A DNA stretch of 64,000 nt from Halarcobacter sp. (GTDB lineage: Bacteria; Campylobacterota; Campylobacteria; Campylobacterales; Arcobacteraceae): NCBI GenBank assembly GCA_963676565.1, contig OY781089.1, positions 2,720,001 to 2,784,000 of the forward strand, given 5' to 3'. The translations under genes and the position numbers were made by a program. Every line of letters starts with the position of its first letter. Positions within the stretch are counted from its first letter, which is position 1. Shown here piece after piece: positions 14,534-47,456 of the stretch. The notes beneath the pieces are model-generated. The model searched no databases and was not told the DNA's origin. It saw only the letters and a program-made list of their open reading frames with translations.

Positions 14534-14543
14534 TTTTAATACC

Positions 14544-15575: not shown

Positions 15576-15658
15576 AATTGTCTTTCCCTTTTGTAATATA
15601 TTTACCTACTGATTATAACGTCCCACCATAGCAAATAAATAACATCAATAACAATTTT

Positions 15659-16486: not shown

Positions 16487-16517
16487 CTATTTTTCCTTTT
16501 ATTAATTTGTTTTTTAT

Positions 16518-18539
16518 TTATTTGATTTGCCAATCATGTGCAAATGGTTCTGGTTTAACATCTTTAATTAAAGAACTATTACCATTTTGTGCATCATCAC
16601 CTACCTCTTTAAGAAATTTTCTTAAATTTTCAGTAGAAGATAAACCTTTTAATACCTGAATACCCTCAATTTCAACTTTTAGTATTTCAGAATATAAAGC
16701 TGCAATTGATTGTTGAGACTTATCAAGTTTTGATGCATGTGCACAAAGAGCAAGCATCGCAACAAGAAGTTCAATTTTTTTACCCAATCTATGGATTGGA
16801 ACCTGTGCACCAGTTTGTTCTAGTTGATAGTACAAACTCATACCTAGGTAAAGCCATTTACATTTTCGTAGATTTCTTTCTGCATATTGAACATATGGTT
16901 TTAAATCTGCTGGGATTTCGTCATATCTTGCTTTCATTTCTACAGGAACTAATCTTCCTAATAAATGAGGAATCTCTTTTAAACCATTTCCTATAATCCA
17001 AGATATTAATTTATAAAACCCTGGTTTAGTAAGTAGTTTTAAAGTTGCAGTTGTACATCTTCCTGGATATTTCATGAAAGTTTTTAAATCAATTTTTAAA
17101 ATTCTCTCTTCTTTTGCAACTGGTTCTCCATTAATCATGTTTGCTTCTTGTAAAACACTTAACATACTTGCAACATTTTCAGATGTAAATTTTGAAGTTA
17201 TATCTTTAATCATACCCATCAAAATCAAATCATTTTCACCCTCAACAATTCCAAATACATGAATATTTGCTCTAGCTTCTGTAACTCTTGAACTTCTATC
17301 AAAACTTCTTCCACCAATAACTCTTTCACAAGAGATTAATGATTCTAAAGCTGAACTTGCTGCAAAAGATTTTGAGATATCTCTTAAACCAGCTAAATCC
17401 ACTCCATTTTTATCTTGGTTCAAAGAAAGGTGAGATAAAGCTTGAGAGGTTAATGCTCCACCTAGCATTTTTCCAATTCGTAGACGTGGTAATTCATGTT
17501 TGATAATAGGCCCACCAACACCTAATCTTTTAATTGCATAATTAACAGAATCTGATGCCATCATTCTTTGATAACCTGCACACATTGCAGTTAGCATACA
17601 TCTACCCATTCTAAGGCAATAAAATAAAACCTCTACTCCATCAGCTTTGATTTCATTTTCTACTGGAATTGGGAAGTTTGAGAAAGTAATTCTTGTGTTA
17701 TAAATTGATTTAAAGGCATCAGAATTTGAAGAAACAATATTAAAACTATATTCATCATTTTTGATATCATCTTCAGGAAGTTCGATGATAAATAAACCAA
17801 TTTTTTTACCACCTTTTCCAATTCTTGCAGCAATTGCCATAATACCACCATAAATAGCACTAGTGATATAATGTTTATTTGCAGCTCCTTCAGCAAATAA
17901 TCTGTAACAATTATTCTCTTCATCCTTTTCAACGTAAGCTTGGATTTTTTTAGCATTTACTCCAACACCTACTTCTGTTAATGCAAAAGAAGTGATTCTT
18001 CCACTAGAAATCATTGGTAAAAATATAGATTTTTGTCTATCATCTCCATATCCAAGTAATGAACTTGAACCAATTGTAAGTTGTCCAGAAATTTCAACTG
18101 CTAATGCCCCTATACCATTTGCAGCTAGTGACTCTTCCATAATTGCTAATTGATTGTAGTTTAAACCTAAACCATTGTATTCAGCTGGAACAGTAAAACC
18201 ATAGGCATTTTTCTTAGATACTTCTTCCCTTAAAGTATTTGATAACTTTCCATCTGCTTCGAAAGCTTGTCCACTTTCTAATAAATTTAATGCTGTTTCT
18301 AAAATCTCATCTGCTTCTTTTGTTTTTGCATTTTGCATTGCAACTGAACCTGCTGAGATTTCAGATAAATCTGGTTGTGGACCATAAATTAATCTTTCAA
18401 CTAAACTTGATTTTGTAATATTTAATTTTTTCATCGCATCTGACATTGCTGAATCTAAAGCACCAACATCTTGAGCTTGTACATGATCACCTGCAGCAGC
18501 TAATGCTTCCGTTGCAGCTGATTGACCATTTTTCCCCAT
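16518..18539 (-). CDS. Long (673 aa) acyl-CoA dehydrogenase family protein
   Basis: VPAEYNGLG, FALTE..VG and K.YITSA motifs; catalytic Glu in IVEGEND; long C-terminal extension. Confidence 0.82.
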   Translation of the reverse strand: MGKNGQSAATEALAAAGDHVQAQDVGALDSAMSDAMKKLNITKSSLVERLIYGPQPDLSEISAGSVAMQNAKTKEADEILETALNLLESGQAFEADGKLSNTLREEVSKKNAYGFTVPAEYNGLGLNYNQLAIMEESLAANGIGALAVEISGQLTIGSSSLLGYGDDRQKSIFLPMISSGRITSFALTEVGVGVNAKKIQAYVEKDEENNCYRLFAEGAANKHYITSAIYGGIMAIAARIGKGGKKIGLFIIELPEDDIKNDEYSFNIVSSNSDAFKSIYNTRITFSNFPIPVENEIKADGVEVLFYCLRMGRCMLTAMCAGYQRMMASDSVNYAIKRLGVGGPIIKHELPRLRIGKMLGGALTSQALSHLSLNQDKNGVDLAGLRDISKSFAASSALESLISCERVIGGRSFDRSSRVTEARANIHVFGIVEGENDLILMGMIKDITSKFTSENVASMLSVLQEANMINGEPVAKEERILKIDLKTFMKYPGRCTTATLKLLTKPGFYKLISWIIGNGLKEIPHLLGRLVPVEMKARYDEIPADLKPYVQYAERNLRKCKWLYLGMSLYYQLEQTGAQVPIHRLGKKIELLVAMLALCAHASKLDKSQQSIAALYSEILKVEIEGIQVLKGLSSTENLRKFLKEVGDDAQNGNSSLIKDVKPEPFAHDWQIK

Positions 18540-18603
18540 TCCTCGTCCTTTTTTTCACATTTCATTTTATATATTGTCAGTTTAACAACAAAAAACTTAA
18601 ATT

Positions 18604-18621
18604 TATCTTACTAGTAAAGTA
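18604..18621. promoter_or_regulatory. Candidate MarR operator TATCTT-ACTAGT-AAAGTA
   Basis: Imperfect palindrome with a perfect core TTACTAGTAA (18608-18617) in the divergent intergenic region. Confidence 0.5.
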
Positions 18622-18702
18622 CTTTTAAATGAATTGTAAAATATTTTTAAGATACTTATATTTTTTATAGAAGATTAATTTAAGTTTCGCTACTCTTTTG
18701 CT

Positions 18703-19188
18703 ATGGATAAAAAAGAATTAGAATTAAGAATAGAACGGGTTAAAGAAAAGAAACCCGAAATTTACAATGATGTTTTGACTATTGTAGTCCCTTTTTATAT
18801 GTTTCACAATGATTTAAGGGAAGGTATTACAAAAATACAAGAAACTAAATATAATATTACAAATAGTGAAATTGATGTGATGAGATGTTTATATTTATCA
18901 AAAAATGATGATAATACATTAAGTCCAACAAAAATATACAATAAACTAATGTTTACATCTGGTGCTATTACTAAAGTATTAAAAAAACTTGAAGATAGAG
19001 GTTATGTTGTTAGACTTGAAAACAAATTTGATAAAAGAAGTAAACTTGTAAAGTTAACAGAAGAAGGTGCAAAGGTTTGCAAAGCCTGTTTTTCAGATAT
19101 GCTTGCATATGAAGAAAAAAGATTCTCAAAACTAACAGAAGAAGAAAAAAAGATTTATACAGAATTAACTCAAAAACTTTTACATTAA
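18703..19188 (+). CDS. MarR-family regulator divergent from the hydroxycinnamate operon
   Basis: LSPT.IY..LMFTSGAITKVLKKLE and DKRSKLVKLTEEG winged-helix motifs. Confidence 0.9.
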   Translation: MDKKELELRIERVKEKKPEIYNDVLTIVVPFYMFHNDLREGITKIQETKYNITNSEIDVMRCLYLSKNDDNTLSPTKIYNKLMFTSGAITKVLKKLEDRGYVVRLENKFDKRSKLVKLTEEGAKVCKACFSDMLAYEEKRFSKLTEEEKKIYTELTQKLLH

Positions 19189-19221
19189 TACTTCTTGAGA
19201 AGTTTTAATGTATCTGTTATT

Positions 19222-19827
19222 TTAAAATATTTTTCTAGATAAAATTAATTCTATACCTTTCCCACTTACATATACAGTTATTAAACTATATAAAGTAATT
19301 TCAATATTTTTAAAAACAAAACCTGCAACTATAATAATAACTGCATCAAAAAATATCAAAATATGTTGTTCTTTAAAATTAGTTTTATGAGATATTAATT
19401 TAGAAACAACTGCTGGTCCTCCTGCTGCAGCATTACCTTTAATAATAAAACCAAGTGCAACACCTACAACTATACCACCATATATACTTGCAAGTATAGG
19501 GTCAATTACAAAACCCTCAAATTGTAAAAATTCTCTAAAAAAATCTACTGTAAAAGATGTAATTAGGATTGTAATAACAGTTCTTATTCCATATTTTTTA
19601 TTTATAAATTTTATACTTAATAGAATTAGGGGGATATTAATCATTAACATTAATACCCCAAGTGGTAAGCCAATTACTTTATTTAAAATCATAGCAATTC
19701 CAGGTGAGCCACCTGGAAATATATAGTTAGGTGCTAAAAAAGTTACTACAGACAGTGATAATAAAATACCTCCAGTAAAAATATAAAGATAGTTTTTTAA
19801 CTCAACTTTTTTATTAATGTTTTTCAC
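19222..19827 (-). CDS. YitT-family membrane protein
   Basis: PGG..GIA, INIPL, YGGIVVGVALG and GG...V motifs; no C-terminal soluble domain. Confidence 0.8.
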   Translation of the reverse strand: MKNINKKVELKNYLYIFTGGILLSLSVVTFLAPNYIFPGGSPGIAMILNKVIGLPLGVLMLMINIPLILLSIKFINKKYGIRTVITILITSFTVDFFREFLQFEGFVIDPILASIYGGIVVGVALGFIIKGNAAAGGPAVVSKLISHKTNFKEQHILIFFDAVIIIVAGFVFKNIEITLYSLITVYVSGKGIELILSRKIF

Positions 19828-19830
19828 TAT

Positions 19831-20613
19831 TTATGTATTCCAAGATGGATCTAGTTTTGATATAAGTCTATAATAAGCTGGCCATTCAGGGAACCTAACC
19901 TCAGCTCCTGCTTGTGCAGCTCCCCCTTCAAACTGTTCTCTTGTTCTTAAAATTGCATCTTCACTTGCTTGAATTAACTTTTCCCCTGTAGACATTGCTT
20001 TTATTTGAACTTTACAACCTTGTATTAATTGGAACATTCTATGAAAAGCCCATACTACACTATCTCCAGTTGTAATAACTCCATGATTATGTAACATAAT
20101 TGAGTGTTTATCCTCACCCATTGCTAATACTAATCTTTCTTGCTCACTTTCATCTAAAACTATTCCTTCAAATTTATGATATCCAAGTCTTTCATGGAAT
20201 TGATATGATTCTTGCATCAAAGGAATAAATCCACACTCTAAAGCACTAACTGCTTGTGTATCTGGATTATGAGTATGTAGAACACAACTTATATCTGGTC
20301 TTGCTTTGTGAATAGCAGAATGAATTACAAATCCTGCTTTATTTACTGGATAGGGACTATCATCTATCTTTTCACCATCTAAATTTATTTTTACTAAATT
20401 TGATGGTTTAATCTCACCATATAATAAACCAAATGGATTTATTAATACCTCTTCTGTTCCTGGAATCCTATATGAAATATGATTATAAACTTGTGTAGTC
20501 CAACCATAATAATCAACCATTCTATAACATAAAGCCAAATCAACTCTAGCTTGCCATTCAACTTCACTATAACCTTTTGGTGTTTGTTGTGTTTTAAAAA
20601 TATCTTTCATCAT
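19831..20613 (-). CDS. Class II aldolase/adducin-fold protein (NovR/CloR-like)
   Basis: RVDLA..YR, NHIS.R, INPFGLLY.EI, AGFVIHSAIH, HTH and NHG metal-binding motifs. Confidence 0.88.
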   Translation of the reverse strand: MMKDIFKTQQTPKGYSEVEWQARVDLALCYRMVDYYGWTTQVYNHISYRIPGTEEVLINPFGLLYGEIKPSNLVKINLDGEKIDDSPYPVNKAGFVIHSAIHKARPDISCVLHTHNPDTQAVSALECGFIPLMQESYQFHERLGYHKFEGIVLDESEQERLVLAMGEDKHSIMLHNHGVITTGDSVVWAFHRMFQLIQGCKVQIKAMSTGEKLIQASEDAILRTREQFEGGAAQAGAEVRFPEWPAYYRLISKLDPSWNT

Positions 20614-20619
20614 ATTACC

Positions 20620-21534
20620 CTATTGTGGTCTTTCACCCATTATTGTTGTTCTATACATCTCTCTTCTAAATCCTTCATAATCATTAAAAGCTTGATGTAA
20701 ACAGATTCTATTGTCCCACATGATAAATGTTTTTGAATACCATTTTAATCTACAACAAAAAGCCTCTTGTGTTGCAAAGTCTGCTAAAAAATTGATTAAA
20801 GGCATCGATTCAGCCTCAGTCATACCTTCAATTCCACAAGCATAAGTTTTATCTACAAAAAGTGCCTTTTCACCTGTAACTGGGTGAGTTCTAACTATAG
20901 GATGATATGAACCTTTAATCATATTCTGAGTGTTAACATCAAACTCCATATTTCCAAAGTTTTTGATTTCACCTTTGTTATTTTGTTCTGAATAGATTTG
21001 CTCAACTACTCTTTTTCCACTCATCCAAACTTTTAGTGGAGCAATCATCTCTTTCATAGCATCACTTAAACTATTATATGCAAGTACATTGTTTGCATAT
21101 AATGTATCTCCACCATAAGGTGGCATATCCTTTCCATAATTAAAGGCAACGGCAGGTGGTTTTTCTAAAAATGCAGAATCCGTATGCCAACCACTTCCAA
21201 ATACCATCTCAGTTTTTGTACTAGCTTCTTTAATAACTGGTTGAATATTTTCATGACCTTCTACACCTTTTGTGTATGCATCAGTTCCAAACTCACCAAA
21301 TCTAAGTGTAATATTTTCATGATCAGTAAATGAAATATCTTGATCTCTAAAAATGATTAGTTTATGTCTGTATAAAGCATCTTCAATTTCATTTTTAGTC
21401 TCATCATCAAAATTACTTAAATCAACACCACTAATCTCAGCACCCATTGCTGCTGCAATTGGTTTAACTTTAATATTTTTGTACTCTTTTGCACTATTAT
21501 CAAATAATCCTATTGGATGAACAATACTTCCCAT
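20620..21534 (-). CDS. TauD/TfdA-family Fe(II)/2-oxoglutarate dioxygenase (RdpA-like)
   Basis: GAEISGVDL, WHTD facial-triad motif, GGDT, HPIVRTHP and WDNR..LH...R motifs. Confidence 0.9.
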   Translation of the reverse strand: MGSIVHPIGLFDNSAKEYKNIKVKPIAAAMGAEISGVDLSNFDDETKNEIEDALYRHKLIIFRDQDISFTDHENITLRFGEFGTDAYTKGVEGHENIQPVIKEASTKTEMVFGSGWHTDSAFLEKPPAVAFNYGKDMPPYGGDTLYANNVLAYNSLSDAMKEMIAPLKVWMSGKRVVEQIYSEQNNKGEIKNFGNMEFDVNTQNMIKGSYHPIVRTHPVTGEKALFVDKTYACGIEGMTEAESMPLINFLADFATQEAFCCRLKWYSKTFIMWDNRICLHQAFNDYEGFRREMYRTTIMGERPQ

Positions 21535-21542
21535 AATAAATC

Positions 21543-22574
21543 CTATTCGTTTTCTTTTATTGCACGTCTAGCTTCATCTACAAGTTTTTGACCATCAAGT
21601 CCTTTTGCATTAACTTCATTAATCCATCTTGTAACAACTCTTTGTCCGGCTTCATTAAATTTTTTCATTTGTTCAGCGTTTAACTTTACAACCTCTCCAC
21701 CCTTTGATTCATTTTGTAATTTAATACCTGGTTTTTCAACATCCATCCAAAGTTGACCTAACTCTTTTGTTTTTTCTAAACCAGTATTATTTTCAATAAC
21801 TTGTTGTAGCTCTTTTGGTAATTTGTTAAATTTATCTTTATTCATTAAAAATAAAAATACTGATGTTCCAAATCTATCACCATTTTCACCTTCAGCCGAA
21901 TATTGTGTAATTTGGTGGAATTTAAATGGAGCAAATACTTCAAATGGGAATATTGCCCCATCAATAGCTTTTTTAGATAATGCTTGTGGAACTGCAGGAA
22001 GTGGCATTCCAACTGGCTCAGCCCCATACTCTTCAATCAACCATGCACCCGTTCTAGAAGGTGATCTTAATTTAAGCCCTTTTAAATCAGAAACATCTGT
22101 AACTTTTTTATCAACCATATGAAGTGCATTTCCAGCGGCAACATATACAACTAAAGGTTTAACATCTTTATAATCTTCTTTAATCATGTCGAAGTTTTTT
22201 TCAATTGCTACTGATGTTGCAACGGCATTCCCTTTGTGTACTGTTGGTAGTTCGTACACTTCAGTTCTTTGAAACACTCCAGGGGTATACCCTGCAACTG
22301 TCCAAACAATATCAGTTGAACCATCTCTAACTTGTTTATATAATTCATTTGGTTTTCCACCCATACTCATTGATGGAAAGATTTCTATTTTCAACTTTCC
22401 ATTTGATTCTTTTTCAATTTTTTTTGCCCATGGCACAAAAAACTTTGTATGTGCTGGTGATTTAGAACTTAAAAAGTGATGTAGTGTTAATGTAGTAGTT
22501 TCAGCATACAATGAACTACTTAATAATAATGCTCCTAAAGCACTTAATCTCTTACTTTTAGTTGTTAAATTCAT
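21543..22574 (-). CDS. dctP: TRAP transporter substrate-binding protein (orphan paralog 2)
   Basis: Same motifs as the other DctP copies. Start at ATG 22574 after an AAGGG RBS. Confidence 0.9.
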   Translation of the reverse strand: MNLTTKSKRLSALGALLLSSSLYAETTTLTLHHFLSSKSPAHTKFFVPWAKKIEKESNGKLKIEIFPSMSMGGKPNELYKQVRDGSTDIVWTVAGYTPGVFQRTEVYELPTVHKGNAVATSVAIEKNFDMIKEDYKDVKPLVVYVAAGNALHMVDKKVTDVSDLKGLKLRSPSRTGAWLIEEYGAEPVGMPLPAVPQALSKKAIDGAIFPFEVFAPFKFHQITQYSAEGENGDRFGTSVFLFLMNKDKFNKLPKELQQVIENNTGLEKTKELGQLWMDVEKPGIKLQNESKGGEVVKLNAEQMKKFNEAGQRVVTRWINEVNAKGLDGQKLVDEARRAIKENE

Positions 22575-22660
22575 TCTTTTCCCTTTTAATAAATTTAATT
22601 CAGTATAACGATTAAAAACAGAAAATAGAAGGCAAATTTTTAACAATTCCTGATACTATT

Positions 22661-23512
22661 TTAACATTTTGATAAATATTCTTTTGGAGTTAATTTCTCA
22701 TATTTTTTAAAAAATTTTGCAAAATATGAAGGGTTTTCAAAACCTAACTCATAGGCAATAGTTTGGATTGTTTTGTTTCTTGTTACAATCTCTCTTTTGG
22801 CTTCTAAAATTAATCTTTGGTGTATCATTTGAGTAATTGTAGAACCTGATATTTTTTTAACAATTTCATTTAATCTTTTTGTAGATAAATCCATCTTTCT
22901 TGAATAAAAATCTGCATTTTTCTTCTCTTTGTAGTTTTCTTCAATTAGATTTTTTAAAGTGATTAGTTTTTGAAAATTAGAATCAAGTTTTTGTTGTGAT
23001 TCTGGTTTTAACTCTTCCATATAGTAAAGTAGTGTTTCAAGCAATGATCTTAGAATTGAATTATTTTGATTTTCTTTGTGATACTCTTTTTTTAAAACAT
23101 CCATTATTGGAAAGAGTGTAGAGAATTTATCTGGATCAAAAGTAAGATATGGTTCACAATCAGGATTGAATAGTTTATGTAAAATCTTTTTTATGTTATT
23201 ACTATTTTCTAGTAAAAATGGTTCATTAAAGTTTATGATATATCCATCATATTCATTATTGTATTTTTTTATATTCCATTTATGAGTCTGATTTGGATAG
23301 ATAAAGTATATTCGTCCTTTTTTTAAAGGGTATTCTTCAAAATCTATATCATGGGTTTGATTATCATCTTTTGATTCAGTAATAATAACTATTTCATAAT
23401 ATCTATGTCTATGAATAGGAATAGTCCTATTCATACACCTTTGTTTTATAATAGAAATTCTAAGTTGTTTTTCGTATGTTATTTCATAACTTGGAATTTC
23501 TTTTATATTCAT
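22661..23512 (-). CDS. AraC-family regulator with cupin sensor domain (PobR/HpaA-like position)
   Basis: HRHRYYEI cupin motif; C-terminal IAYELGFENPSYFAKFFKK. Confidence 0.9.
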   Translation of the reverse strand: MNIKEIPSYEITYEKQLRISIIKQRCMNRTIPIHRHRYYEIVIITESKDDNQTHDIDFEEYPLKKGRIYFIYPNQTHKWNIKKYNNEYDGYIINFNEPFLLENSNNIKKILHKLFNPDCEPYLTFDPDKFSTLFPIMDVLKKEYHKENQNNSILRSLLETLLYYMEELKPESQQKLDSNFQKLITLKNLIEENYKEKKNADFYSRKMDLSTKRLNEIVKKISGSTITQMIHQRLILEAKREIVTRNKTIQTIAYELGFENPSYFAKFFKKYEKLTPKEYLSKC

Positions 23513-23522
23513 CTTTTAACTT

Positions 23523-24737
<1,215 letters not shown>

Positions 24738-24739
24738 TC

Positions 24740-24793
24740 ATTATAAAAGCTTTTTGTTCCATATAAAATACTAATGTTCCTCTATATGGGACA
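24740..24793 (-). promoter_or_regulatory. pobA promoter with candidate IclR sites
   Basis: Minus-strand TATAAT at 24740-24745. GTTCC repeated 20 bp apart (24756, 24776). Inverted repeat TGTTCC-N7-GGGACA at 24775-24793. Confidence 0.5.
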
Positions 24794-24858
24794 AAAAAGC
24801 AAATTTTTCGGGAATTTAGTATAAAATATAGAAAATTTATGAATTTTGGAGTATTTAT

Positions 24859-25623
24859 ATGAACAAAAGTTCGAATCTATCTTCAGTTGAAAATGCACTG
24901 AAAATATTAGAATGTTTTACAATTGATGATACAGAAAAAAGAGTAACTGAGATTTCAAATGAACTTGGATTGGCAAAAAGTACGGTGAGTCGTCTTTTAA
25001 AAACTTTACTAAACCAAGGTTATGTAAAAAAGAATCCTACTAATCAAAAATACTCTTTAGGAAATAAAGTATTAACTTTATATAGCTCACTAATGTCTAA
25101 TATGGAAATAGTAAAAGAGGCTCATCCATATCTAGAAGAATTAGCAAAAGAAACTTCTGAGTCTGTACAACTTGCAGAACTGGATAATAAAAAAGTTATC
25201 TATATGGAACAAATCAAATCTAGTTTTCCTATACAGATTTTTGCTCATATTGGAAGAGTTAATCCCGTTCATTGTACAAGTTCAGGAAAACTATTACTTG
25301 CCTACCAAGATTTTCAAACTATTGAAAATATTTTGAGTAATGGATTAGAAAAATTTACTCCATATACAATCACAGATGAAAATAAATTAAAAAAAGAACT
25401 TTTAGAAATAAGAGACTTAGGTTACTGCTATATAGAAAATGAATTTATAGATGGTATTGTTTCAATAGCTGCTCCAATACGAGATTATAATAAAAATGTA
25501 GTAGCAGCAGTTTCGCTTGTGGGACCTATTCAAAGAATAAATGGAGTTAAAGCTCAAAAATATATAAATAGAGTAGTTCAGACTGCAAAAGATATATCTT
25601 ATAGTATGGGGTATATGTATTAG
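24859..25623 (+). CDS. IclR-family regulator divergent from pobA
   Basis: SVENALKILE, LGLAKSTVSRLL, HCTSSGK and SIAAPIRD motifs. Confidence 0.92.
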   Translation: MNKSSNLSSVENALKILECFTIDDTEKRVTEISNELGLAKSTVSRLLKTLLNQGYVKKNPTNQKYSLGNKVLTLYSSLMSNMEIVKEAHPYLEELAKETSESVQLAELDNKKVIYMEQIKSSFPIQIFAHIGRVNPVHCTSSGKLLLAYQDFQTIENILSNGLEKFTPYTITDENKLKKELLEIRDLGYCYIENEFIDGIVSIAAPIRDYNKNVVAAVSLVGPIQRINGVKAQKYINRVVQTAKDISYSMGYMY

Positions 25624-25666
25624 TGAAATTGGTTGGCATTACATTTTTCAACGTAATGTATAAAGC

Positions 25667-27646: not shown

Positions 27647-27801
27647 TTTCTGCTTATTTTAACAAATATATATAAAAATACGTCTTAAAATTATTATATT
27701 GAAACTACACCCCTGAAACTTAACCTGAGGTTGAATCTCTACTTTTTATTAAGAAACGCTTCTCATGCATGATTAAGGACACTTAAAGAAATAATATACA
27801 T

Positions 27802-27816
27802 CATTTTGCTAAAATG
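27802..27816 (+). promoter_or_regulatory. Toxin-antitoxin promoter: extended -10 TGCTAAAAT within palindrome CATTTT-GCT-AAAATG
   Basis: A palindrome overlapping the -10 upstream of the antitoxin fits TA autoregulation. Confidence 0.45.
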
Positions 27817-27844
27817 GTTTATATTTTAAAGATTGGAGTAAATT

Positions 27845-28367: not shown

Positions 28368-28400
28368 AAATAAAATAGACTAAAAAAGTCTATTTTATTT
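28368..28400. terminator. Bidirectional terminator hairpin
   Basis: AAATAAAATAGACT-N5-AGTCTATTTTATTT between convergent genes. Confidence 0.7.
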
Positions 28401-38509: not shown

Positions 38510-39907
38510 CTATCCAGCTAAAAAATGTGGCATGAATAATACTATCATAGGTAATAGCAATAAAACTCCAATTCTCACTATTTCTGCTAGTAAAAATGGA
38601 ATAACTCCAATAAATGTCTCATTCATTGGTACATTTTTTGCTACTTTTGAAATAATGAATACATTTAAACCAACAGGAGGTGTAATAAGACCTAATTCAA
38701 CGGATATGAGGGCAAGAATCCCAAACCATATTTTTAAATCTTCATTGTCCATTCCAAAACCAGCAGTTGATGCTGTTACGTACTCCCCACCATTTAGTGT
38801 GATTAATACAGGCCATATAAATGGAATAACGACAAGAATCATTGCCATTGAATCCATGAAAAATCCAAGAATCAAAAATATTAATAAGATCAATATTAAT
38901 ATAAGCCAAACATTCATATCAAGTGTTGATGTCCACTCTGCGATTCCTTGAGGAAGACCAGATCTTGTAAAAAAACCTTTTAAAACTTCTGCTCCAAACA
39001 AAATGAAATAAATCATTGCACTTGTAACACCAGTTTCTAAAATACTCGTTTTTAATCTTGAAATAGTTAAGCCTTCACCTTTACCCTTTTTAATTCTTAA
39101 ATATACTCCATACATTGCAATAATAAAAACACCAGCAGCAGCTGCTGGAGTAGGAGTAAATAATCCTAAGCCAAGACCTAGAATAATTGAACCAAAGGTT
39201 AAAACAACGGGAACTAATCCCCTTAGTGCTTTATTTCTTTCCTCTTTACTTAATGGTTTTGAAAGAGGTGCTAATTCAGGTTTTAATCTAACTTGAATAA
39301 CAATTACCATAATAAAAAACAATACTGCTAATAAACCTGGCAAGATTGCTGCTTGGAACATCTCAATAATTGAAGCCTCAACTACAATTGAATATAAAAT
39401 TAAAGCAATTGATGGTGGAATTAATATTCCAAGTGTTCCACCTGCTGCTAATGTTCCAGTTGCAAGTCTAGGAGAATAATTAAGTTTCTCTAATTCTGGT
39501 AATGCAATTTTTCCCATTGTAGATGCTGTTGCTAATGATGAACCAGAAACTGCTCCAAAACCTGCACAAGCTCCAATTGATGTGATTGCAACTCCACCTT
39601 TAAATCTACCAAGTATTGCGTTCATTCCTGCAAATAAATCTTTTGCAAGCCCAGTATAGTTTGCTAGATATCCCATTAGGATAAATAAAGGGATAACAGA
39701 TAGATTATAATTTGCTAAATTTTCCCATAATAAACTTTTGTATTGCATAATATATGGTTCAAATCTAATATAAGAAATATTTACTGATAATACGTAAGTT
39801 CCTATAATACCAGTAAAAGCCATGGCAAAAGCAACTCTAGCTTTTAATATTAAAAGTAAGAAAAATAAGGCTAAGCCTAATAAACCAATTAATTCTTTCT
39901 CAGCCAT
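38510..39907 (-). CDS. dctM: TRAP transporter large permease
   Basis: IPLFILMG, GAVSGSSLATA, GGTLGILIPPS and GLITPPVGLNVF motifs. Confidence 0.95.
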   Translation of the reverse strand: MAEKELIGLLGLALFFLLLILKARVAFAMAFTGIIGTYVLSVNISYIRFEPYIMQYKSLLWENLANYNLSVIPLFILMGYLANYTGLAKDLFAGMNAILGRFKGGVAITSIGACAGFGAVSGSSLATASTMGKIALPELEKLNYSPRLATGTLAAGGTLGILIPPSIALILYSIVVEASIIEMFQAAILPGLLAVLFFIMVIVIQVRLKPELAPLSKPLSKEERNKALRGLVPVVLTFGSIILGLGLGLFTPTPAAAAGVFIIAMYGVYLRIKKGKGEGLTISRLKTSILETGVTSAMIYFILFGAEVLKGFFTRSGLPQGIAEWTSTLDMNVWLILILILLIFLILGFFMDSMAMILVVIPFIWPVLITLNGGEYVTASTAGFGMDNEDLKIWFGILALISVELGLITPPVGLNVFIISKVAKNVPMNETFIGVIPFLLAEIVRIGVLLLLPMIVLFMPHFLAG

Positions 39908-40430
39908 CTATTTTTCCTCCTTTATGTAAAAATATTTGGAATGCTAAAACAACTGCCCATAAAGCAAGTGAAATAATCCCTGGTGCATAAAATGGCCATT
40001 CTGGCCAACCTAATGTAACTGAAACTGCACCATCATCATATGATTCAATCATTCCCATAAACATTAGAATTGTTAAAAAAATCACAAAAACTAAAGTACA
40101 AGTTAACCACAACATATCAAAATATTGTTGCACTTTTGGTGAGAATTTATTTGCAAAAAAGTCTACAGCTACATGTCCCCTTTGAGCTTGTGCCCAAGGG
40201 AAAAACATTAAAGCAATACAACTTGTCAATAATCTAACCAAATCCTCATAACCAGAAAGTGCTGATACATTAGAATCAAAAATTCTAGCCACTTTATCTA
40301 AACCAAATGCTGCTATATTAACCACTGTAGTTGTTACTACAATAAAAAGTAAAATACCAGCTAAATAAACCCACCAAAGGCATATTCTTTTTAGCTTCCC
40401 CTCAAAATATAATCTTAATCTAGCTTGCAT
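39900..40430 (-). CDS. dctQ: TRAP transporter small permease
   Basis: Four TM segments, RGHVAVD motif; lies between dctP and dctM. Confidence 0.9.
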   Translation of the reverse strand: MQARLRLYFEGKLKRICLWWVYLAGILLFIVVTTTVVNIAAFGLDKVARIFDSNVSALSGYEDLVRLLTSCIALMFFPWAQAQRGHVAVDFFANKFSPKVQQYFDMLWLTCTLVFVIFLTILMFMGMIESYDDGAVSVTLGWPEWPFYAPGIISLALWAVVLAFQIFLHKGGKIDG

Positions 40431-41501: not shown

Positions 41502-42440
41502 TTATTTCATTGCTTTTTCTAAAGCATCTAGAACTTTCATTGCCGATAATGCTTGTTGTACACTTGCATTTGGTTCACGTCCATCTTTAATTGCTGAGAT
41601 AAACTCTCTATCTTGTAACTCAATTCCATTCATAGAGACTGCAACATTTGAAACATCAATTTGCTCTTCTTTTCCCGTAAATAAATCATCATATCTAGCT
41701 ATATAAGTTCCATTATCACAGATATATCTAAAGAAAGTTCCTAATGGCCCATCATTATTAAAAGATAATGATAATGTACAAATTGCTCCTGAAGCAGTTT
41801 TAAGTCCAATACTCATATCCATTGCAATACCAAGTTCAGGATGAATTGGTCCTTGCATTGCTTGAACATCAACAATCTCCTCACCTGTTTGGTAAGCAAA
41901 TAAATCAACTGTATGACAAGCATGGTGCCATAATAAGTGGTCAACCCATGATCTTGGCTCACCTAAGGCATTTGTATTTGTTCTTCTGAAGAAATAAGTT
42001 TGAACATCCATTTGTTGAATTCTTAACTCACCAGCAGTAATTTTATTGTGAACATATTGATGAGATGGATTAAATCTTCTTGTATGTCCAGCCATAGCAA
42101 TAAGTCCTGTCTCTTTTTGTTTATCAACAATTGCTTGTGCATCTGCTAATGAATCTGCCATTGGAATTTCAATCATTACATGTTTTCCTGCATCCATTAA
42201 AGCGATTGCTTGTTGTGCATGAATTTGAGTTGGACTAGTAATAATTGCTGCATCAAAATCATATTTTAAAGCATCTTCTAAAGTAAGTACATAATTTGGA
42301 ACATTAAACTGTTCAGCTACTTTTTTTGTACCCTCTTCTCTTCTTCCAACTAAGCAAACAACCTCAGCATCCTCAATATTTGATAGAGCATCTAAATGTT
42401 TTTTTCCAAAAGCTCCATTTCCTACAACACAAATTTTCAT
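41502..42440 (-). CDS. ligC: 4-Carboxy-2-hydroxymuconate-6-semialdehyde dehydrogenase
   Basis: GAFGKKHLD, GHTRRFNPSHQ, RSW.DHLLWHHA.HTVDLF and SMNGIELQDREF motifs. Confidence 0.95.
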   Translation of the reverse strand: MKICVVGNGAFGKKHLDALSNIEDAEVVCLVGRREEGTKKVAEQFNVPNYVLTLEDALKYDFDAAIITSPTQIHAQQAIALMDAGKHVMIEIPMADSLADAQAIVDKQKETGLIAMAGHTRRFNPSHQYVHNKITAGELRIQQMDVQTYFFRRTNTNALGEPRSWVDHLLWHHACHTVDLFAYQTGEEIVDVQAMQGPIHPELGIAMDMSIGLKTASGAICTLSLSFNNDGPLGTFFRYICDNGTYIARYDDLFTGKEEQIDVSNVAVSMNGIELQDREFISAIKDGREPNASVQQALSAMKVLDALEKAMK

Positions 42441-43289
42441 TTAGTCCTCCTTATTTTCTAAAATTGTTAATGAATAATTAGTATTTGAAATTGGTACATG
42501 CATAAATCTATAAACTTCATTTACCTCTTTAGTTAATGCACCTCTCATAGTTAACCACATAATTGCTTCTGCACCTTCACTACCTGTTTCTCTAATTAAT
42601 TCAGTTACTGAGATGTCTTTTATTGATTCTGGATCTTTTACCAAATTATCTAACCACCAAGTATCGTATTCGACATTAATTAAACCTGCTCTTGGTCCTT
42701 GTAATTGATGTGATAATCCACCTGTTCCCATAATTGCAACATTGATATCTTCAGGGTAAGACTCAACAGCTTCTCTAATAGCTTTTCCTAAGTTGTAACA
42801 TCTATTTCCCTTTGGTTGAGGATATTGAACAACACCAACATACAATGGAATAAACTTACAAGGCCACTCTTCTAAATCTTCACCAAATGCTAAAGAAGCA
42901 GGAACAGAAAAACCATGGTCTACATCTAATTCAAATGACATCGCAACATCAAACTCTTTTTCATTGAAGTGTTCTGCTATATGACAAGATAAAGCAGAGT
43001 CCCCTTTAAAAGTTGGAACTTTTCTTCTTCCATATCCTTCATCAGCTGGTAAATACTCATCAGCAATACCAAGTCCAAAAGGGATAACATTTTTTAATGA
43101 GAAGTTAGAACCATGGTCATTATAAACAATAATACAAACATCAGGTTTTTTCTCTTTCATCCATGCTCTTAAAGGTTTAATCCCTTCATTAAAAGGTTCC
43201 CAATATGGACCAGTCATCTCTTTATTGTCCATTTTAAGCATGATTGTTGGTATGTGTGAAGTACCTATTCCTCCGATTATCTTAGCCAT
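42441..43289 (-). CDS. ligB: Protocatechuate 4,5-dioxygenase beta subunit
   Basis: TSH.P, VYNDH, PADEGYG, DVDHG, GTGGLSHQLQGPRAGLIN and GSEG.E motifs. Start 43289. Confidence 0.92.
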   Translation of the reverse strand: MAKIIGGIGTSHIPTIMLKMDNKEMTGPYWEPFNEGIKPLRAWMKEKKPDVCIIVYNDHGSNFSLKNVIPFGLGIADEYLPADEGYGRRKVPTFKGDSALSCHIAEHFNEKEFDVAMSFELDVDHGFSVPASLAFGEDLEEWPCKFIPLYVGVVQYPQPKGNRCYNLGKAIREAVESYPEDINVAIMGTGGLSHQLQGPRAGLINVEYDTWWLDNLVKDPESIKDISVTELIRETGSEGAEAIMWLTMRGALTKEVNEVYRFMHVPISNTNYSLTILENKED

Positions 43290-43707
43290 TTTTCTTCTCC
43301 TCATTCTCTTTTATACTTCTATTTCCCTCAATTGGTCTTCCACCATTAATCATCATTTGTTGGAACTCTTCAGTTGTCATTTTATTTGGTTCTTCAGACA
43401 TCATAGCTCCGGCTTGTTGCATATGTAAACCTAGAGTTGCAGCAATCTTCCATAAATAATAGATATTCCCACCTAATTCAAGAAGGTAATTTAAATCTTT
43501 TCTTCTAATACCATCTTTCATCTCTTCTGTTAATTTAGGGAATCTACTCATATATTCTTCTTCATCAGCTAAAAAAGCTTCCCTTGCATCAGGTTTATTT
43601 AAAGTGTCACAAAATTTATTTAATTCATAACCTTTTACACAAGTTTGTAAGTCAAATACAATTGTTCCAGGTATATCTTTATAGTCTCTTTCTTCATAAC
43701 TTCCCAT
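43282..43707 (-). CDS. ligA: Protocatechuate 4,5-dioxygenase alpha subunit
   Basis: DIPGT.VF, KGY.LN.FC, GGNIY and MM..GGR..EGNRS motifs. Confidence 0.92.
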   Translation of the reverse strand: MGSYEERDYKDIPGTIVFDLQTCVKGYELNKFCDTLNKPDAREAFLADEEEYMSRFPKLTEEMKDGIRRKDLNYLLELGGNIYYLWKIAATLGLHMQQAGAMMSEEPNKMTTEEFQQMMINGGRPIEGNRSIKENEEKKNG

Positions 43708-43726
43708 AATTTAATCCCTTTCTTTT

Positions 43727-44761
43727 TTAATTAAAATGTTTTTCAATATGTTGATTAATTCTAGGATAAACATTTCTAATATTATCTTCGAATATCATCT
43801 TTTTCTTTTCATCACTAATCTTAGCAGCATCGATGTATCGTTTTGTATCATCAAAATAATGACCTGTTAATGGGTCAATTCCTCTAACTGCTCCAATCAT
43901 TTCAGACGCAAATAAAATATTTTCTGTAGGAACTAAATCTAATAATAAATCAATACCTTCTTGGTGATATACACAAGTATCAAAATAGATATTATTTTCA
44001 ATAATGTTATTTAAATTATCTAATTCTAACATATCACAAAGACCTCTAAATCTTCCCCAATGATAAGGCACTGCTCCACCACCATGTGGGATAACAAATT
44101 TTAACTCTGGAAAGTCTTTAAATAGTGTTTTACTCATCATAAGTTGAGTAAAAGCAGTTGTATCTGCACCTAAATAGTGTGATGATGTTGCATGAAATAC
44201 TGGGTTACAACACCCACTTACATGAATCATTGCTGGAACACCATATTCAACCATCTTTTCATATAATGGATACCAATATTTATCATCTAGCTTTGGAGCA
44301 TCATTCCAATATCCCCCAGATGGATCTGGATTTAAATTACATCCAATAAATCCATACTCTTTTACAACTCTTTCAAGTTCAGCTGCACTTGCAGTCATAT
44401 CTGAACCTGGAGATTGTGGAAGTTGTGCAACACCCACAAAGTTTTTAGGAAAAATATCAACTATTCTTGCAATAAGTTCATTACAATGTTCAGTCCAATT
44501 TTTACTAGTACTTTGATTTCCTATGTGGTGTCCCATCCAAGATGCTCTTGGAGAGAAAATAGTTAAGTCAGTACCTCTTTCTTGTTGTAATTTCAACTGA
44601 TTTTTTTCAACACTTTCTCGCAAAGCCTCATCAGTAATATTAATAACACCCTTTGCATGTTGTACTAAAGGATCAAAACTTAACTCTTTTTTTTGTTGTT
44701 CTCTATAATCACCTAACTCTTTAGGTCCTGTTGTATAATGTCCATGACAATCAATAATCAT
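43727..44761 (-). CDS. ligJ: 4-Oxalomesaconate hydratase
   Basis: MIIDCHGHYTT, FSPRAS.M.HH, NPDPSGG, PHGGGAVPYHWGRFRG and FASEMIGAVRGIDP motifs. Confidence 0.95.
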   Translation of the reverse strand: MIIDCHGHYTTGPKELGDYREQQKKELSFDPLVQHAKGVINITDEALRESVEKNQLKLQQERGTDLTIFSPRASWMGHHIGNQSTSKNWTEHCNELIARIVDIFPKNFVGVAQLPQSPGSDMTASAAELERVVKEYGFIGCNLNPDPSGGYWNDAPKLDDKYWYPLYEKMVEYGVPAMIHVSGCCNPVFHATSSHYLGADTTAFTQLMMSKTLFKDFPELKFVIPHGGGAVPYHWGRFRGLCDMLELDNLNNIIENNIYFDTCVYHQEGIDLLLDLVPTENILFASEMIGAVRGIDPLTGHYFDDTKRYIDAAKISDEKKKMIFEDNIRNVYPRINQHIEKHFN

Positions 44762-44762
44762 A

Positions 44763-45482
44763 TTAAGATTCTCCTTTCAATTGAGCTTCATCATCATAAT
44801 ATTTAAATCCTGCTGCTTCTAAACCTGGTCTCATTTTGTATAAATCAAGTCCTAAAACACCAGCTTCAAACTTCTCTCTTTTTTCACCTTCAAAATCTTC
44901 TCTTTTTTGAGCTGCATCTGCAACTATTTTTGCATCTTCTTGTGCAACAATACAAATCCCATCATCATCAGCAACTACAACATCACCAGGATTTACAATT
45001 TGTCCTGCACAAACAATAGGAATATTCACTGAACCTAATGTATTTTTTACTGTACCTCTAATACTAACTGCTTTTGACCATACTGGAAAATCCATTTCTT
45101 CTAAATCTTTAGTATCTCTAACTCCACCATCAATCACAAGTCCTTTAACACCTTGTGCAATAGCAGAAGTTGCTAATAAATCTCCAAAGAAACCATCAGT
45201 ATTTGGTGTTGTACAAGCAGCAATTATAATATCACCTGGTTGTGCTAACTCCATAGCTACATGAAGCATCCAGTTGTCACCTGGCTGAAGTAATACTGTA
45301 ATTGCACTTCCAGCTATTCTTTTCCCTTTAAGTACAGGTCTAAGTTCAGGATGTAATTCCCCTACTCTTTTTTGTGCTTCATGAACTGTTGCACTTCCAA
45401 ACTTTTCTAATCTTTCAATCTCTTCTTTTGGCGCTCTATTTATATTTTTTACAGCTACACCTAAATGTGGTTTTCTAATCAT
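44763..45482 (-). CDS. ligK: 4-Carboxy-4-hydroxy-2-oxoadipate aldolase
   Basis: [35 protein letters not shown] and LGLD.Y.MR motifs. Start 45482. Confidence 0.95.
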
Positions 45483-45483
45483 C

Positions 45484-46356
45484 TTAATCCTCCCATCCAT
45501 ATAATCTAGCTGGATTATCAACTAAAATTTTCTTTTGTAAAGCCGGGTCTGGAACCATTAATGGAAATAAATCCATTAAGTCTCCATCATTTGGCATATA
45601 TTTTTTAATATTTGGGTGAGGACAATCTGTTCCCCAAAGGATTCTATCTGGTGCAATTGCCACTAACTTTTGCGCATATGGAATCGCATCATAAAATGGT
45701 GGCTCTGGTGAAATTCTTTCAGCACAAGAGATTTTAACCCACCAATTTTCCCTTTCCATAAATTTACATAAAATTTTAAATGCTTCTTGCTCAACACCCT
45801 CTTTTGTTGGGACTCTACCCATATGGTCAACTACAATTGTAATGTCAAATTTTGCAAAGAAATCTTCATATTTAATTATATCTTCTGCATTTACATGAAT
45901 AACTAAATGCCAACCCAATGGAATTACTTTATTTATAACTCTTTCCATCATCTCTAAATCTGGCGCTCCACCTAAATGTGTAACAAAATTAAACCTAACA
46001 CCTTTAACACCATTTTCATCTAAATATTTAAAATCTTCATCTGTAAAAGTGTCATCTGCCATACAAACACCTTTATATCTTTTAGGATCATTTTTTATAG
46101 CATCTAACATTGCTGTATTATCTTTACCATGGCAAGAAGCTTGAACTAAAACAGCTCTAGAGATTCCAATAGTATCATGCATCTTTCTTAAAAGTGCCTC
46201 TGGTGTATCAGGTGGCCAGTATGTTGCCTTTTGTGAATAAGGAAACACTTCATGTGGTCCAAATACATGACAATGGGCATCACAAGCATTTTCCATAGCT
46301 TTAAATACTGGCGTCTTAGTATTTCTATCTGGCGCCATACAAGTTTTCTTTTCCAA
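45484..46356 (-). CDS. ligI: 2-Pyrone-4,6-dicarboxylate lactonase
   Basis: [37 protein letters not shown] and LVDNP.RLY motifs. Confidence 0.92.
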
Positions 46357-46373
46357 ATTAAACTCCTTCTTTT

Positions 46374-47456
46374 TTAATTTAAATCATCTGGATGTGGATA
46401 AGCCACACCTTTACTTAATAATCTTGCTGTTCTTAATAAGCCAGCTTTTTTAATACTTAATTCGTCATTTATTTTTTCACTTGTTAATTCGACTGTAAAC
46501 TCACCACTTGGATGTTCAATAGTTAAATTAGCAATTGGCATATTTTTTACTTTTATAATATCACTAGTAACACACTCATCATATAAACAAGCACTTGCAA
46601 CAGAAACTGCTCCAAGTACTCCAATTGCTGCATGACAATTGTGAGGTATAAATGTTCGTGTGTTTATGCTTCCACCATTTTTAGGAGCTGAAACAATTGT
46701 CATTTTTGGTACAACTTTTTTTGATACTTCCCCAAGATTCATCATTGGACCAACTTCTAATCTTAATTCTTCTAATGTTTTTCTTAATTCAGAATTTTTG
46801 CTTAACTCTTCACAACTTTCATATCCTGTAATTCCTAATTGATTTGCATTAATCAAAACTACAGGCATACCATTATCAATACATGTAATATCAATATCAT
46901 TTACAATATCTTTTTTATTGCCCGTTGGAAAAAGTGAACCACAAACAGATCCTGCAACATCAAGATAATTACAAATAATTGGTGCTGATGTTCCAGGAAC
47001 TCCATCAATTCTTGCATCACCATCAAATTTTAATTTTTTGTTTGGTGTTTGCATTACAAGTTCACAAATATTGTTACTATTAATCATATTGACTTTTATC
47101 GTTGTCATATCTTCTGTTGGTAATACCATCTTATTTTCAATAGCAAAAACACCAACACCTGATAATATATTTCCACAATTAGGAGAACTGTCAACTCTAT
47201 TTTCACCAACAACTACTTGTACAAAAAGAAAATCTATATCACAATTTTCTTTTTCTGATTTACTTACAATAGCAACCTTACTAGTAAGGGGATTCGCGCC
47301 TCCCAAACCATCAATTTGTCTAGAGTCACGACCAACAATACTTAATATGATTTCATCTCTAAGGTTTTCATCCTGAGGTAAATCATTTTTATCAAAATAA
47401 ATACCCTTTGAACTACCACCTCTTATTTGCATATATGGTATTGATTCATAACTCAT
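46374..47456 (-). CDS. ligU: 4-Oxalomesaconate tautomerase/isomerase (PrpF family)
   Basis: RGGSSKG, RQIDGLGGA..LTSKVA, NCGNIL, DNGMP, FIPH.CH.AIG, EHPSG and RTAR motifs. Confidence 0.93.
   Translation of the reverse strand: MSYESIPYMQIRGGSSKGIYFDKNDLPQDENLRDEIILSIVGRDSRQIDGLGGANPLTSKVAIVSKSEKENCDIDFLFVQVVVGENRVDSSPNCGNILSGVGVFAIENKMVLPTEDMTTIKVNMINSNNICELVMQTPNKKLKFDGDARIDGVPGTSAPIICNYLDVAGSVCGSLFPTGNKKDIVNDIDITCIDNGMPVVLINANQLGITGYESCEELSKNSELRKTLEELRLEVGPMMNLGEVSKKVVPKMTIVSAPKNGGSINTRTFIPHNCHAAIGVLGAVSVASACLYDECVTSDIIKVKNMPIANLTIEHPSGEFTVELTSEKINDELSIKKAGLLRTARLLSKGVAYPHPDDLN

Follow-up and report, generated by a model that had tools for sequence, protein, structure and literature searches.

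Upper pathways determine which aromatic compounds a bacterium feeds into a few central ring-cleavage routes. Here we describe a putative upper pathway encoded in a window of 64,000 nucleotides (contig OY781089.1, positions 2,720,001 to 2,784,000; G+C about 29%) of Halarcobacter sp., whose genome is complete and consists of a single contig of 3.34 Mb. Near the 4-hydroxybenzoate 3-monooxygenase gene pobA, the window carries two adjacent genes encoding an Fe(II)/2-oxoglutarate (2OG) dioxygenase, further called TauDl, and a class II aldolase-fold metalloprotein, further called AldoII. This pair likely constitutes a funnel into 4-hydroxybenzoate or protocatechuate. For the particular reactions we suggest, by analogy with characterized enzymes and with a probability of roughly 0.4, that TauDl and AldoII would convert 4-hydroxyphenylacetate by hydroxylation to 4-hydroxymandelate and then by oxidative decarboxylation to 4-hydroxybenzoate. 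Both proteins belong to known superfamilies, in a catabolic pairing that is undescribed. Found beside pobA in two unrelated marine bacterial groups, the pair offers a possible new way into the degradation of aromatics that is open to experimental test. The genes in question are:

20620..21534, minus strand: TauDl, RdpA-like Fe(II)/2OG dioxygenase (PF02668, 175.3 bits)
19831..20613, minus strand: AldoII, class II aldolase-fold metalloprotein of the PRK07044 subfamily (PF00596, 150.3 bits; NF005451, 298.4 bits)
23523..24716, minus strand: pobA, 4-hydroxybenzoate 3-monooxygenase (TIGR02360), first gene of the co-oriented run

The run comprises six co-oriented genes on the minus strand, from 24716 down to 19222, separated by gaps of 10, 14, 8, 6 and 3 nt, as the initial annotation of the window had described for the tightly packed genes behind pobA and its araC neighbour. 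PobA scores above the cut-off of the equivalog model TIGR02360 of NCBIfam (613.9 bits, the cut-off being 538.7). Both TauDl and AldoII are single-copy in the genome.

Conservation and gene context of the pair

A scan with the TauDl alignment over one genome per species returned 80 loci (L numbers denote loci, and G numbers genomes, in the comparative sets). In a quick maximum-likelihood tree, the TauDl of the window falls into a clade with 18 loci from Arcobacteraceae and Psychrobacter, with the Shimodaira-Hasegawa-like approximate likelihood ratio test (SH-aLRT) support of 100, and the proteins of this clade are 68-89% identical to it. In 16 of the 18 clade loci, the gene directly downstream of TauDl is AldoII, in the same orientation and separated by about 6-20 nt; the exceptions are L022, where the contig ends, and L024, where the genes lie apart. 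pobA is located within 10 kb in 13 of the 18. The same order on the same strand is also observed in genomes G003, G020 and G028. Among the other 62 TauDl loci (50-61% identity), AldoII is present in two and pobA in none, and Pfam annotation of 127 neighbours from 27 of these 62 loci revealed no common theme. Since the distant homologues have no shared context, functional inference is restricted here to the clade with 68-89% identity.

The pair is embedded in three gene layouts. The smallest Arcobacteraceae clusters, of the protocatechuate 4,5-cleavage type, have the order prpF-lig genes-dctPQM-TauDl-AldoII-pobA, as does the metagenome locus L100. In Psychrobacter, the order is iclR-dctP-TauDl-AldoII-pcaF-pcaDC-pcaH-pcaG-pobA-pcaIJ, with pcaB and a DctP gene on one side, that is, a beta-ketoadipate cluster. 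In the third layout (L118), pobA-AldoII are convergent with TauDl-MFS. The only aromatic metabolites shared by the 4,5-cleavage and beta-ketoadipate routes are 4-hydroxybenzoate and protocatechuate, which places the pair upstream of these compounds.

The phyletic distribution is nested. In the Arcobacteraceae sample of 61 genomes (that of the window and its relatives), TauDl is present in four, AldoII in the same four, and PobA in seven; among 71 Psychrobacter genomes, the respective numbers are six, eight (orthologues with at least 80% identity) and twelve. A 41-45% identical AldoII paralogue is found elsewhere in Psychrobacter genomes. In both samples the genomes with TauDl are thus a subset of those with AldoII, and the latter a subset of those with PobA. 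As TauDl occurs only in genomes that have both an AldoII orthologue and pobA, the pairing goes beyond chance. The simplest reading of this nesting is a linear order in which TauDl converts the substrate to an intermediate, AldoII converts the intermediate to 4-hydroxybenzoate, and PobA yields protocatechuate. Moreover, AldoII orthologues found without TauDl beside pobA and a binding protein of transporters of the tripartite ATP-independent periplasmic type (TRAP) suggest that AldoII acts between TauDl and PobA; in particular, the genomes G102 and G133 have AldoII and DctP inside a pca-pobA cluster and lack TauDl at E <= 1e-60. In such a chain, cells would also have access to an external supply of the intermediate. 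In G099, TauDl is accompanied by two DctP genes and lies 330 kb from AldoII.

A metagenome scan with the AldoII alignment yielded further loci at 52-57% identity. Two of them lack TauDl: L107 comprises dctPQM, a gene of the ketopantoate-reductase family, AldoII, a MetE-like gene and pobA, and L114 comprises pobA, an extradiol dioxygenase gene, AldoII and dctPQM. The PobA proteins of L107, L114 and L118 exceed the TIGR02360 cut-off. In L106, L115, L117 and L119, AldoII adjoins aromatic oxygenase genes. Of the 22 metagenome loci with at least 52% AldoII identity, 4 contain pobA; 7 of these 22 contigs are shorter than 4 kb. In the wider Gammaproteobacteria, AldoII was found at E <= 1e-70 in 3 of 401 genomes, including the centre genome G061, the other two proteins being 48% identical. 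The conserved pair, its context and the nested distribution support the earlier proposal of a funnel module that supplies PobA and the cleavage of protocatechuate. The initial annotation would have been refuted if homologous pairs never co-occurred with aromatic catabolic genes; in fact the co-occurrence is strong.

The closest relative is an uncultured Aliarcobacter (L012:10922-12502), with 89% identity in TauDl. It carries AldoII as a tandem pair, with 76% and 70% identity to that of the window, followed by DctP; the two copies could be split by substrate or enantiomer. In a gammaproteobacterial metagenome-assembled genome (L035:3621-16703), TauDl (59%) and AldoII (55%) stand back to back among non-aromatic genes, encoding a class III aminotransferase, BKACE, GNAT, DctP, DctM, a ketopantoate-reductase-like protein and homocysteine methyltransferase, and this pair may have a different substrate. 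In the Psychrobacter locus L094, from a genome with AldoII and without TauDl, an indolepyruvate/arylpyruvate-decarboxylase-like gene adjoins iclR of the pca-pobA cluster and might supply arylacetaldehydes. This thiamine-pyrophosphate enzyme (L094:16713-18377, minus strand) was considered as a benzoylformate decarboxylase and rejected, as it is indolepyruvate-decarboxylase-like (TIGR03393, 595 bits, the cut-off being 946).

The two proteins and the proposed reactions

TauDl matches PF02668 over residues 23-297 (the cut-off being 27 bits), and its translation contains all three motifs quoted in the initial annotation: GWHTDSAFLEKPP, GIEGMTEAESMPLINFL and NDYEGFRREMYRTTIMGERP. Its closest solved relatives are (R)-phenoxypropionate/2OG dioxygenases (RdpA), whose variants score 197-216 bits (best E 5e-63), followed by TauD with 152 bits, AtsK with 100 and TfdA with 79. 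Judging by these scores, TauDl is closer to RdpA than to TauD, in agreement with the earlier assignment. Residues H117/D119/H280, T144 and R291 of TauDl align with H99/D101/H255, T126 and R266 of E. coli TauD, which we take to bind iron (the triad) and 2OG (the latter two), and the corresponding columns are invariant in all seven aligned sequences. At the presumed taurine-binding positions, His70, Tyr73, Asn95 and Ser158 of TauD are replaced by Asp85, Thr88, Gly113 and Val176, respectively (the Ser158 column is in a loop, where the alignment is less sure); TauD Arg270 is retained as R295. The taurine dioxygenase equivalog NF007104 scores 197.3 bits (E 2.9e-58), below its cut-off of 313. Given these replacements and the score below the cut-off, TauDl is not a taurine dioxygenase.

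Enzymes of the TauD/TfdA group (TauD, TfdA, RdpA) hydroxylate the carbon adjoining an anionic group. RdpA/AAD-1 (PDB 5bk9, 6d1o) has the TauD/TfdA fold with metal and 2OG ligands identical to those of TauDl, and acts on an aromatic carboxylate, hydroxylating the carbon beside the carboxylate. By analogy, TauDl is proposed as a candidate alpha-carbon hydroxylase of an aromatic carboxylate. RdpA cleaves aryl ethers of herbicides as a part of chlorophenoxy-acid degradation; TauDl belongs to a clade of its own, linked with AldoII, pobA and genes of protocatechuate catabolism. A search for fused TauD-aldolase proteins found two longer proteins, neither with PF00596, which is weak evidence.

AldoII exceeds the cut-offs of both PF00596 (22.2 bits) and NF005451, the model of the PRK07044 subfamily (207 bits). 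By sequence, its nearest solved protein is 3OCR (E 6.7e-55), an "aldolase II superfamily protein" of Pseudomonas syringae, followed by adducin (E 3e-48); NovR is more distant (E 3e-18). These closest relatives, 3OCR and adducin heads, are all of the PRK07044 type, and as their entry titles and molecule names mention no catalytic function, none can be transferred to AldoII. The 4949 protein clusters related to AldoII at E <= 1e-30 have only generic names, its matches in the ESM Atlas are named only as generic aldolases or adducins, and the names of the TauDl and AldoII families in the source databases are generic as well.

The fold of AldoII was compared using a predicted model with a predicted local distance difference test (pLDDT) score of 88.6. 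The best match is 3OCR (Z 32.5), followed by NovR (Z 28.0, 24% identity over 237 aligned residues), adducin (27.9), 4xxf (27.6), an entry titled L-fuculose 1-phosphate aldolase from Glaciozyma antarctica, TqaM (27.6) and pyruvic oxime dioxygenase (25.6-26.0). Mesorhizobium 3-hydroxy-2-methylpyridine-4,5-dicarboxylate decarboxylase (2z7b) scores 25.4, and none of the other sugar-phosphate aldolases and epimerases exceeds 22.7. Z differences under about 1-2 are weak, and NovR is tied with adducin, 4xxf and TqaM. Among folds with a functional name, the nearest to AldoII belong to three iron oxygenases, namely NovR, TqaM and pyruvic oxime dioxygenase, which all score higher than true aldolases. 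The initial annotation called AldoII a NovR/CloR-fold protein; the predicted model agrees with this at the level of the fold and sequence comparison does not make the two close kin.

Residues H113/H115/H177 of AldoII align with the metal ligands H92/H94/H155 of E. coli FucA and are invariant in 23 of 23 homologues. FucA E73, which we assume to be catalytic, is replaced by K92, and none of the 23 homologues has Glu in this column. The presumably phosphate-binding Asn29, Thr43, Ser71 and Ser72 of FucA are replaced by H45, F61, V90 and N91; PDB titles among the fold matches name the FucA mutants E73Q/S, N29Q and S71Q. FucA-type models score far below their cut-offs on AldoII.

According to PMC13111500, CloR/NovR have a three-histidine iron site and convert a 4-hydroxymandelate to a 4-hydroxybenzoate with O2, and an Fe(IV)=O model complex turns 4-hydroxyphenylacetate into 4-hydroxymandelate. 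CloR/NovR (PDB 9ryg), which are bifunctional non-haem iron oxygenases, have the class II aldolase fold in common with AldoII, C-terminal extension included, as well as the three-histidine metal site, and their type of product is the one that the TauDl-AldoII module would need. Unlike AldoII, they are biosynthetic enzymes of actinomycetes (aminocoumarins) that use a prenylated substrate, with the 2-oxo acid as the starting point; AldoII belongs to the PRK07044 subfamily, is encoded in catabolic clusters and comes after a 2OG dioxygenase. By analogy with CloR/NovR, AldoII is proposed as a candidate O2-dependent decarboxylase yielding 4-hydroxybenzoate.

In L105, L107 and L115, the gene immediately upstream of AldoII belongs to the ketopantoate-reductase family; L035 has a gene of this family at a distance of two genes from AldoII. 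The best PDB match of the L107 protein is 3wfi, which we take, provisionally, to be a D-mandelate dehydrogenase. The family includes D-mandelate dehydrogenases active on benzoylformate, as stated in PMC4230899 and bioRxiv 10.1101/2024.01.05.573888, and these neighbours are a hint at 2-hydroxy-acid chemistry for AldoII.

Candidate sensor and binding proteins are encoded between pobA and TauDl:

22661..23512, minus strand: AraC-family regulator (HTH_18, 67.9 bits, and AraC_binding domains in Pfam)
21543..22646, minus strand: DctP2, orphan TRAP solute-binding protein (PF03480, 142.5 bits)

Of the named NCBIfam models, that of the 4-hydroxyphenylacetate regulator HpaA matches the AraC protein best (104.5 bits, E 6e-30, the cut-off being 274.65 bits; the next model has E 7e-16). 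Its orthologues (67-68% identity) are located directly upstream of TauDl in L012, L018 and L031, so the regulator accompanies TauDl in these loci and in the window. DctP2 probably starts at the ATG in position 22574, and the protein then has a signal peptide. Its best PDB matches are 5iga/5i5p (E 2.4e-75). In comparisons of its predicted model (pLDDT 89.1), the marine metagenome aromatic-acid TRAP solute-binding proteins 5i5p/5izz have Z 45.9 (root mean square deviation 1.4-1.5, 316-318 residues, 41-42% identity), TarP_Csal/TarP_Sse 43-44, TarP with coumarate, caffeate or ferulate 44, and TarP_Rhp holding 4-hydroxyphenylacetate 39.2. Hence, according to the model, DctP2 is a binding protein of the aromatic-acid (TarP) type. 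The TarP-type and marine metagenome proteins (PDB 7nsw, 7nr2, 7nqg, 5i5p, 5izz; Z 43-46, 35-42% identity) bind aromatic carboxylates; DctP2 differs from them in being an orphan lacking its own DctQM, with a predicted ligand specificity. The initial annotation assigned the module its own TRAP binding protein; in the window it is indeed a dedicated one, of the aromatic-acid type, but a dedicated DctP varies between loci, and in the minimal clusters dctPQM is directly upstream of TauDl.

The host genome carries an HpaB-like hydroxylase, while a search of this genome found neither HpaD (best match 24 bits; second type, none) nor HmgA, so the classical fates of hydroxyphenylacetates are missing. 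Together with the HpaA-like AraC protein and the TarP-like DctP2, one TarP being known with 4-hydroxyphenylacetate, this provides circumstantial hints at an arylacetate, and we suggest 4-hydroxyphenylacetate as the candidate substrate.

The proposed pathway would operate as follows. An aromatic carboxylate would enter through a TarP-type TRAP system, DctP2 passing it to a shared DctQM, and the HpaA-like AraC protein would be the likely sensor. TauDl, with Fe(II), 2OG and O2, would hydroxylate the carbon beside the carboxylate of 4-hydroxyphenylacetate, giving 4-hydroxymandelate. AldoII would bind this 2-hydroxy acid at its three-histidine metal site and decarboxylate it with O2 to 4-hydroxybenzoate and CO2, as modelled on the second half-reaction of CloR/NovR. 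The product would then be degraded by PobA and the enzymes of protocatechuate cleavage, and 3,4-dihydroxy substrates would yield protocatechuate.

Alternative readings and significance

Several observations weigh against the route through 4-hydroxymandelate. TauDl homologues at 50-61% identity are mostly alone in unrelated contexts, and the closest characterized relative of TauDl cleaves aryl ethers and does not hydroxylate arylacetates. AldoII is only distantly related to NovR, being far closer to 3OCR and to adducin heads, for which no catalysis is known, and non-oxidative decarboxylases have its fold at similar Z. The HpaA match of the AraC protein is far below the cut-off, and the window has no ketopantoate-reductase-like gene beside AldoII. 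Moreover, related genomes are not independent samples for co-occurrence, and since the Arcobacteraceae and Psychrobacter proteins are 68-76% identical, horizontal transfer of the block explains part of it.

The initial annotation left two options for the chemistry, aryl-ether cleavage or side-chain shortening, of which the latter, via mandelate, fits best. Ether cleavage is the weaker reading; there would then be two independent adjoining funnels, with TauDl being a true aryloxyalkanoate ether-cleaving dioxygenase that releases 4-hydroxybenzoate or vanillate together with glyoxylate or pyruvate from natural carboxyphenoxy acids, and AldoII acting on another imported substrate. The best solved relative of TauDl, RdpA with its 216 bits, agrees with such an arrangement, as do the separation of the two genes in G099 and L024, the occurrence of AldoII without TauDl, and the VanA-like gene that adjoins araC-TauDl in L031. 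It is nevertheless unlikely, as the genes are adjacent with short gaps in nearly the entire clade and none of the ten TauDl-bearing genomes of the two samples lacks an AldoII orthologue; besides, we know of no natural pool of carboxyphenoxy acids for marine or animal-associated bacteria. Even less probable is a role of TauDl in sulfur scavenging, as a dioxygenase of sulfonates or sulfate esters whose position is incidental. Membership in the TauD Pfam family and the E value of the taurine dioxygenase model are consistent with this, but the score of the latter is below the cut-off, the presumed taurine-binding residues are replaced, no tauABC or ssu genes are adjacent, and the neighbours in all three layouts are aromatic catabolic genes, making it highly improbable.

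Other alternatives concern AldoII. It might be a non-oxidative decarboxylase of an ortho-hydroxylated aromatic di-acid, modelled on 3,4-dihydroxyphthalate decarboxylase and the decarboxylase of the vitamin-B6 pathway, yielding 4-hydroxybenzoate or protocatechuate from a substrate prepared by TauDl. The Z of 25.4 with the Mesorhizobium pyridine-dicarboxylate decarboxylase, the match to the NCBIfam PhtC model NF053537 (E 2.4e-10) and the DctP-AldoII two-gene modules inside pca clusters speak for it. However, it is not obvious what a TauD/TfdA-type sp3 C-H hydroxylase would contribute to the formation of a hydroxyphthalate, NovR and TqaM, both iron oxygenases, score slightly higher (28.0 and 27.6, a difference at the margin of what is weak), and the adjoining ketopantoate-reductase-family genes indicate 2-hydroxy or 2-oxo acids, so that we consider this role quite unlikely. 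With a class II aldolase fold and an intact metal triad, AldoII might instead catalyze a retro-aldol reaction giving 4-hydroxybenzaldehyde after hydroxylation by TauDl of the side chain of 3-(4-hydroxyphenyl)propionate or 4-hydroxyphenyllactate, and the larger island of the window does contain an aldehyde dehydrogenase gene (13085-14533). The loss of the FucA Glu73 (now Lys) and of the phosphate-binding Ser71, Ser72 and Thr43 (Val, Asn and Phe) argues against it, and this dehydrogenase has no match within the loci of the minimal clusters L013, L019, L023, L100 and G028, leaving there no enzyme for the conversion of the aldehyde to 4-hydroxybenzoate. A retro-aldol step is therefore improbable.

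The route through 4-hydroxymandelate also differs from described ones. The classical 4-hydroxyphenylacetate routes (HpaBC-HpaD meta-cleavage and homogentisate) have the same proposed substrate, likewise lead to ring cleavage and employ different enzyme families. The Pseudomonas route with 4-hydroxymandelate oxidase, which is flavin-dependent, has the intermediate and the end point, 4-hydroxybenzoate, in common, but proceeds via the aldehyde with an enzyme of another family; it is mentioned in PMC13111500. Neither the TauDl-AldoII pair, nor a 2OG-dependent arylacetate alpha-hydroxylase, nor a function of PRK07044 was found in the full-text literature searched, which omits most subscription journals. 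It is thus possible, though on present evidence somewhat doubtful, that TauDl and AldoII are the first genes for a bacterial route from 4-hydroxyphenylacetate via 4-hydroxymandelate to 4-hydroxybenzoate, formed by an arylacetate alpha-hydroxylase of the RdpA branch and a catabolic CloR-like iron oxygenase.

If so, this would be the first enzymatic function for the large PRK07044/3OCR/adducin-head subfamily, and a natural role for the RdpA branch, so far familiar chiefly from the degradation of herbicides. The route would be a compact O2-dependent funnel from arylacetates to benzoates involving neither coenzyme A (CoA) esters nor free aldehydes, and its two genes and one binding protein would be transferable to strains engineered for conversion of aromatics. 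Acids derived from dopamine and tyrosine in animal or algal hosts (3,4-dihydroxyphenylacetate (DOPAC), homovanillate and their mandelates) could go straight to protocatechuate or vanillate. The nested distribution offers a natural experiment, as strains with PobA only, with AldoII and PobA, and with all three should differ predictably in growth substrates.

Other genes of the window

The remaining genes of the run and of the associated functions are:

19222..19827, minus strand: YitT-family membrane protein, domain of five transmembrane segments only (PF02588, 159.9 bits), last gene of the run
24859..25623, plus strand: PcaR/PobR-like regulator of the IclR family, oriented divergently to pobA (TIGR02431, 174 bits, the cut-off being 284.75)
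38510..40430, minus strand: dctQ-dctM, sole TRAP membrane unit within the window (PF06808, 279.4 bits; PF04290, 67.3 bits)
41502..47456, minus strand: protocatechuate 4,5-cleavage genes (ligC, ligB, ligA, two amidohydrolase genes, an RraA-like aldolase gene, prpF), assigned by Pfam domains OxRdtase_C, LigB, LigA, Amidohydro_2 (twice), RraA-like and PrpF

The initial annotation counted YitT as a member of the module, but tblastn with the window protein gave no match in 160 related loci (80 + 80), so by this comparison YitT is specific to the window and outside the conserved module. An orthologue of the IclR regulator, 75% identical, adjoins AldoII and pobA in L031.

The scan of 18400-25700 for promoter-like sites gave 37 against 40.9 in shuffles, including one at 24767-24740 near pobA, and that for terminator-like sites gave 4 against 2.1, both being uninformative on operon limits. 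Four oligo-dT RNA runs of an organism that serves as a host have no reads on 18500-25700, which is no test of expression.

The module is surrounded by an aromatic catabolic island with hydroxycinnamate genes, monooxygenases resembling HpaB and phenol hydroxylase, an oxygenase resembling VanA, four DctP genes, one DctQM and the 4,5-cleavage genes. The four TarP-like DctP genes (14544-15575, 21543-22646, 33096-34136 and 40444-41472) are mutually 53-68% identical, and each adjoins a different catabolic module. With four DctP genes and one DctQM in the window, several binding proteins may share one membrane unit, and we infer that DctQM at 38510-40430 is the partner of DctP2 and of the other three; the entire genome has 13 DctP and 9 DctM matches.

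The hydroxycinnamate module (10928-18539) encodes an ADP-forming acyl-CoA ligase, the above aldehyde dehydrogenase, a DctP, a p-hydroxycinnamoyl-CoA hydratase/lyase (430.9 bits, the cut-off being 276) and an unusual acyl-CoA-dehydrogenase-like protein of 673 aa, which is retained with 81-85% identity in L012, L018 and L031. A module of TetR, HpaB-like and flavin mononucleotide (FMN) reductase genes (28400-31288) is located 4-5 kb from TauDl-AldoII; in L018 (13196-17190), the module of this kind lies about 1.5 kb downstream of AldoII and has its own DctP. As the host genome has no HpaD or HmgA, the product of the HpaB-like hydroxylase may also pass via TauDl and AldoII, or via the cinnamate route.

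Between pobA/iclR and the hpaB-like module, a TPR protein of 659 aa with an N-terminal membrane segment (25667-27646) is encoded in the part of the window with the lowest G+C content (0.234 for 26001-28000), which looks like an insertion into the island. The island as a whole (about 10900-47500) is accessory in the family, all seven of the 61 genomes with pobA belonging to the same family. Among the sequencing runs containing the stretch are salt-marsh and wastewater metagenomes and host-labelled samples.

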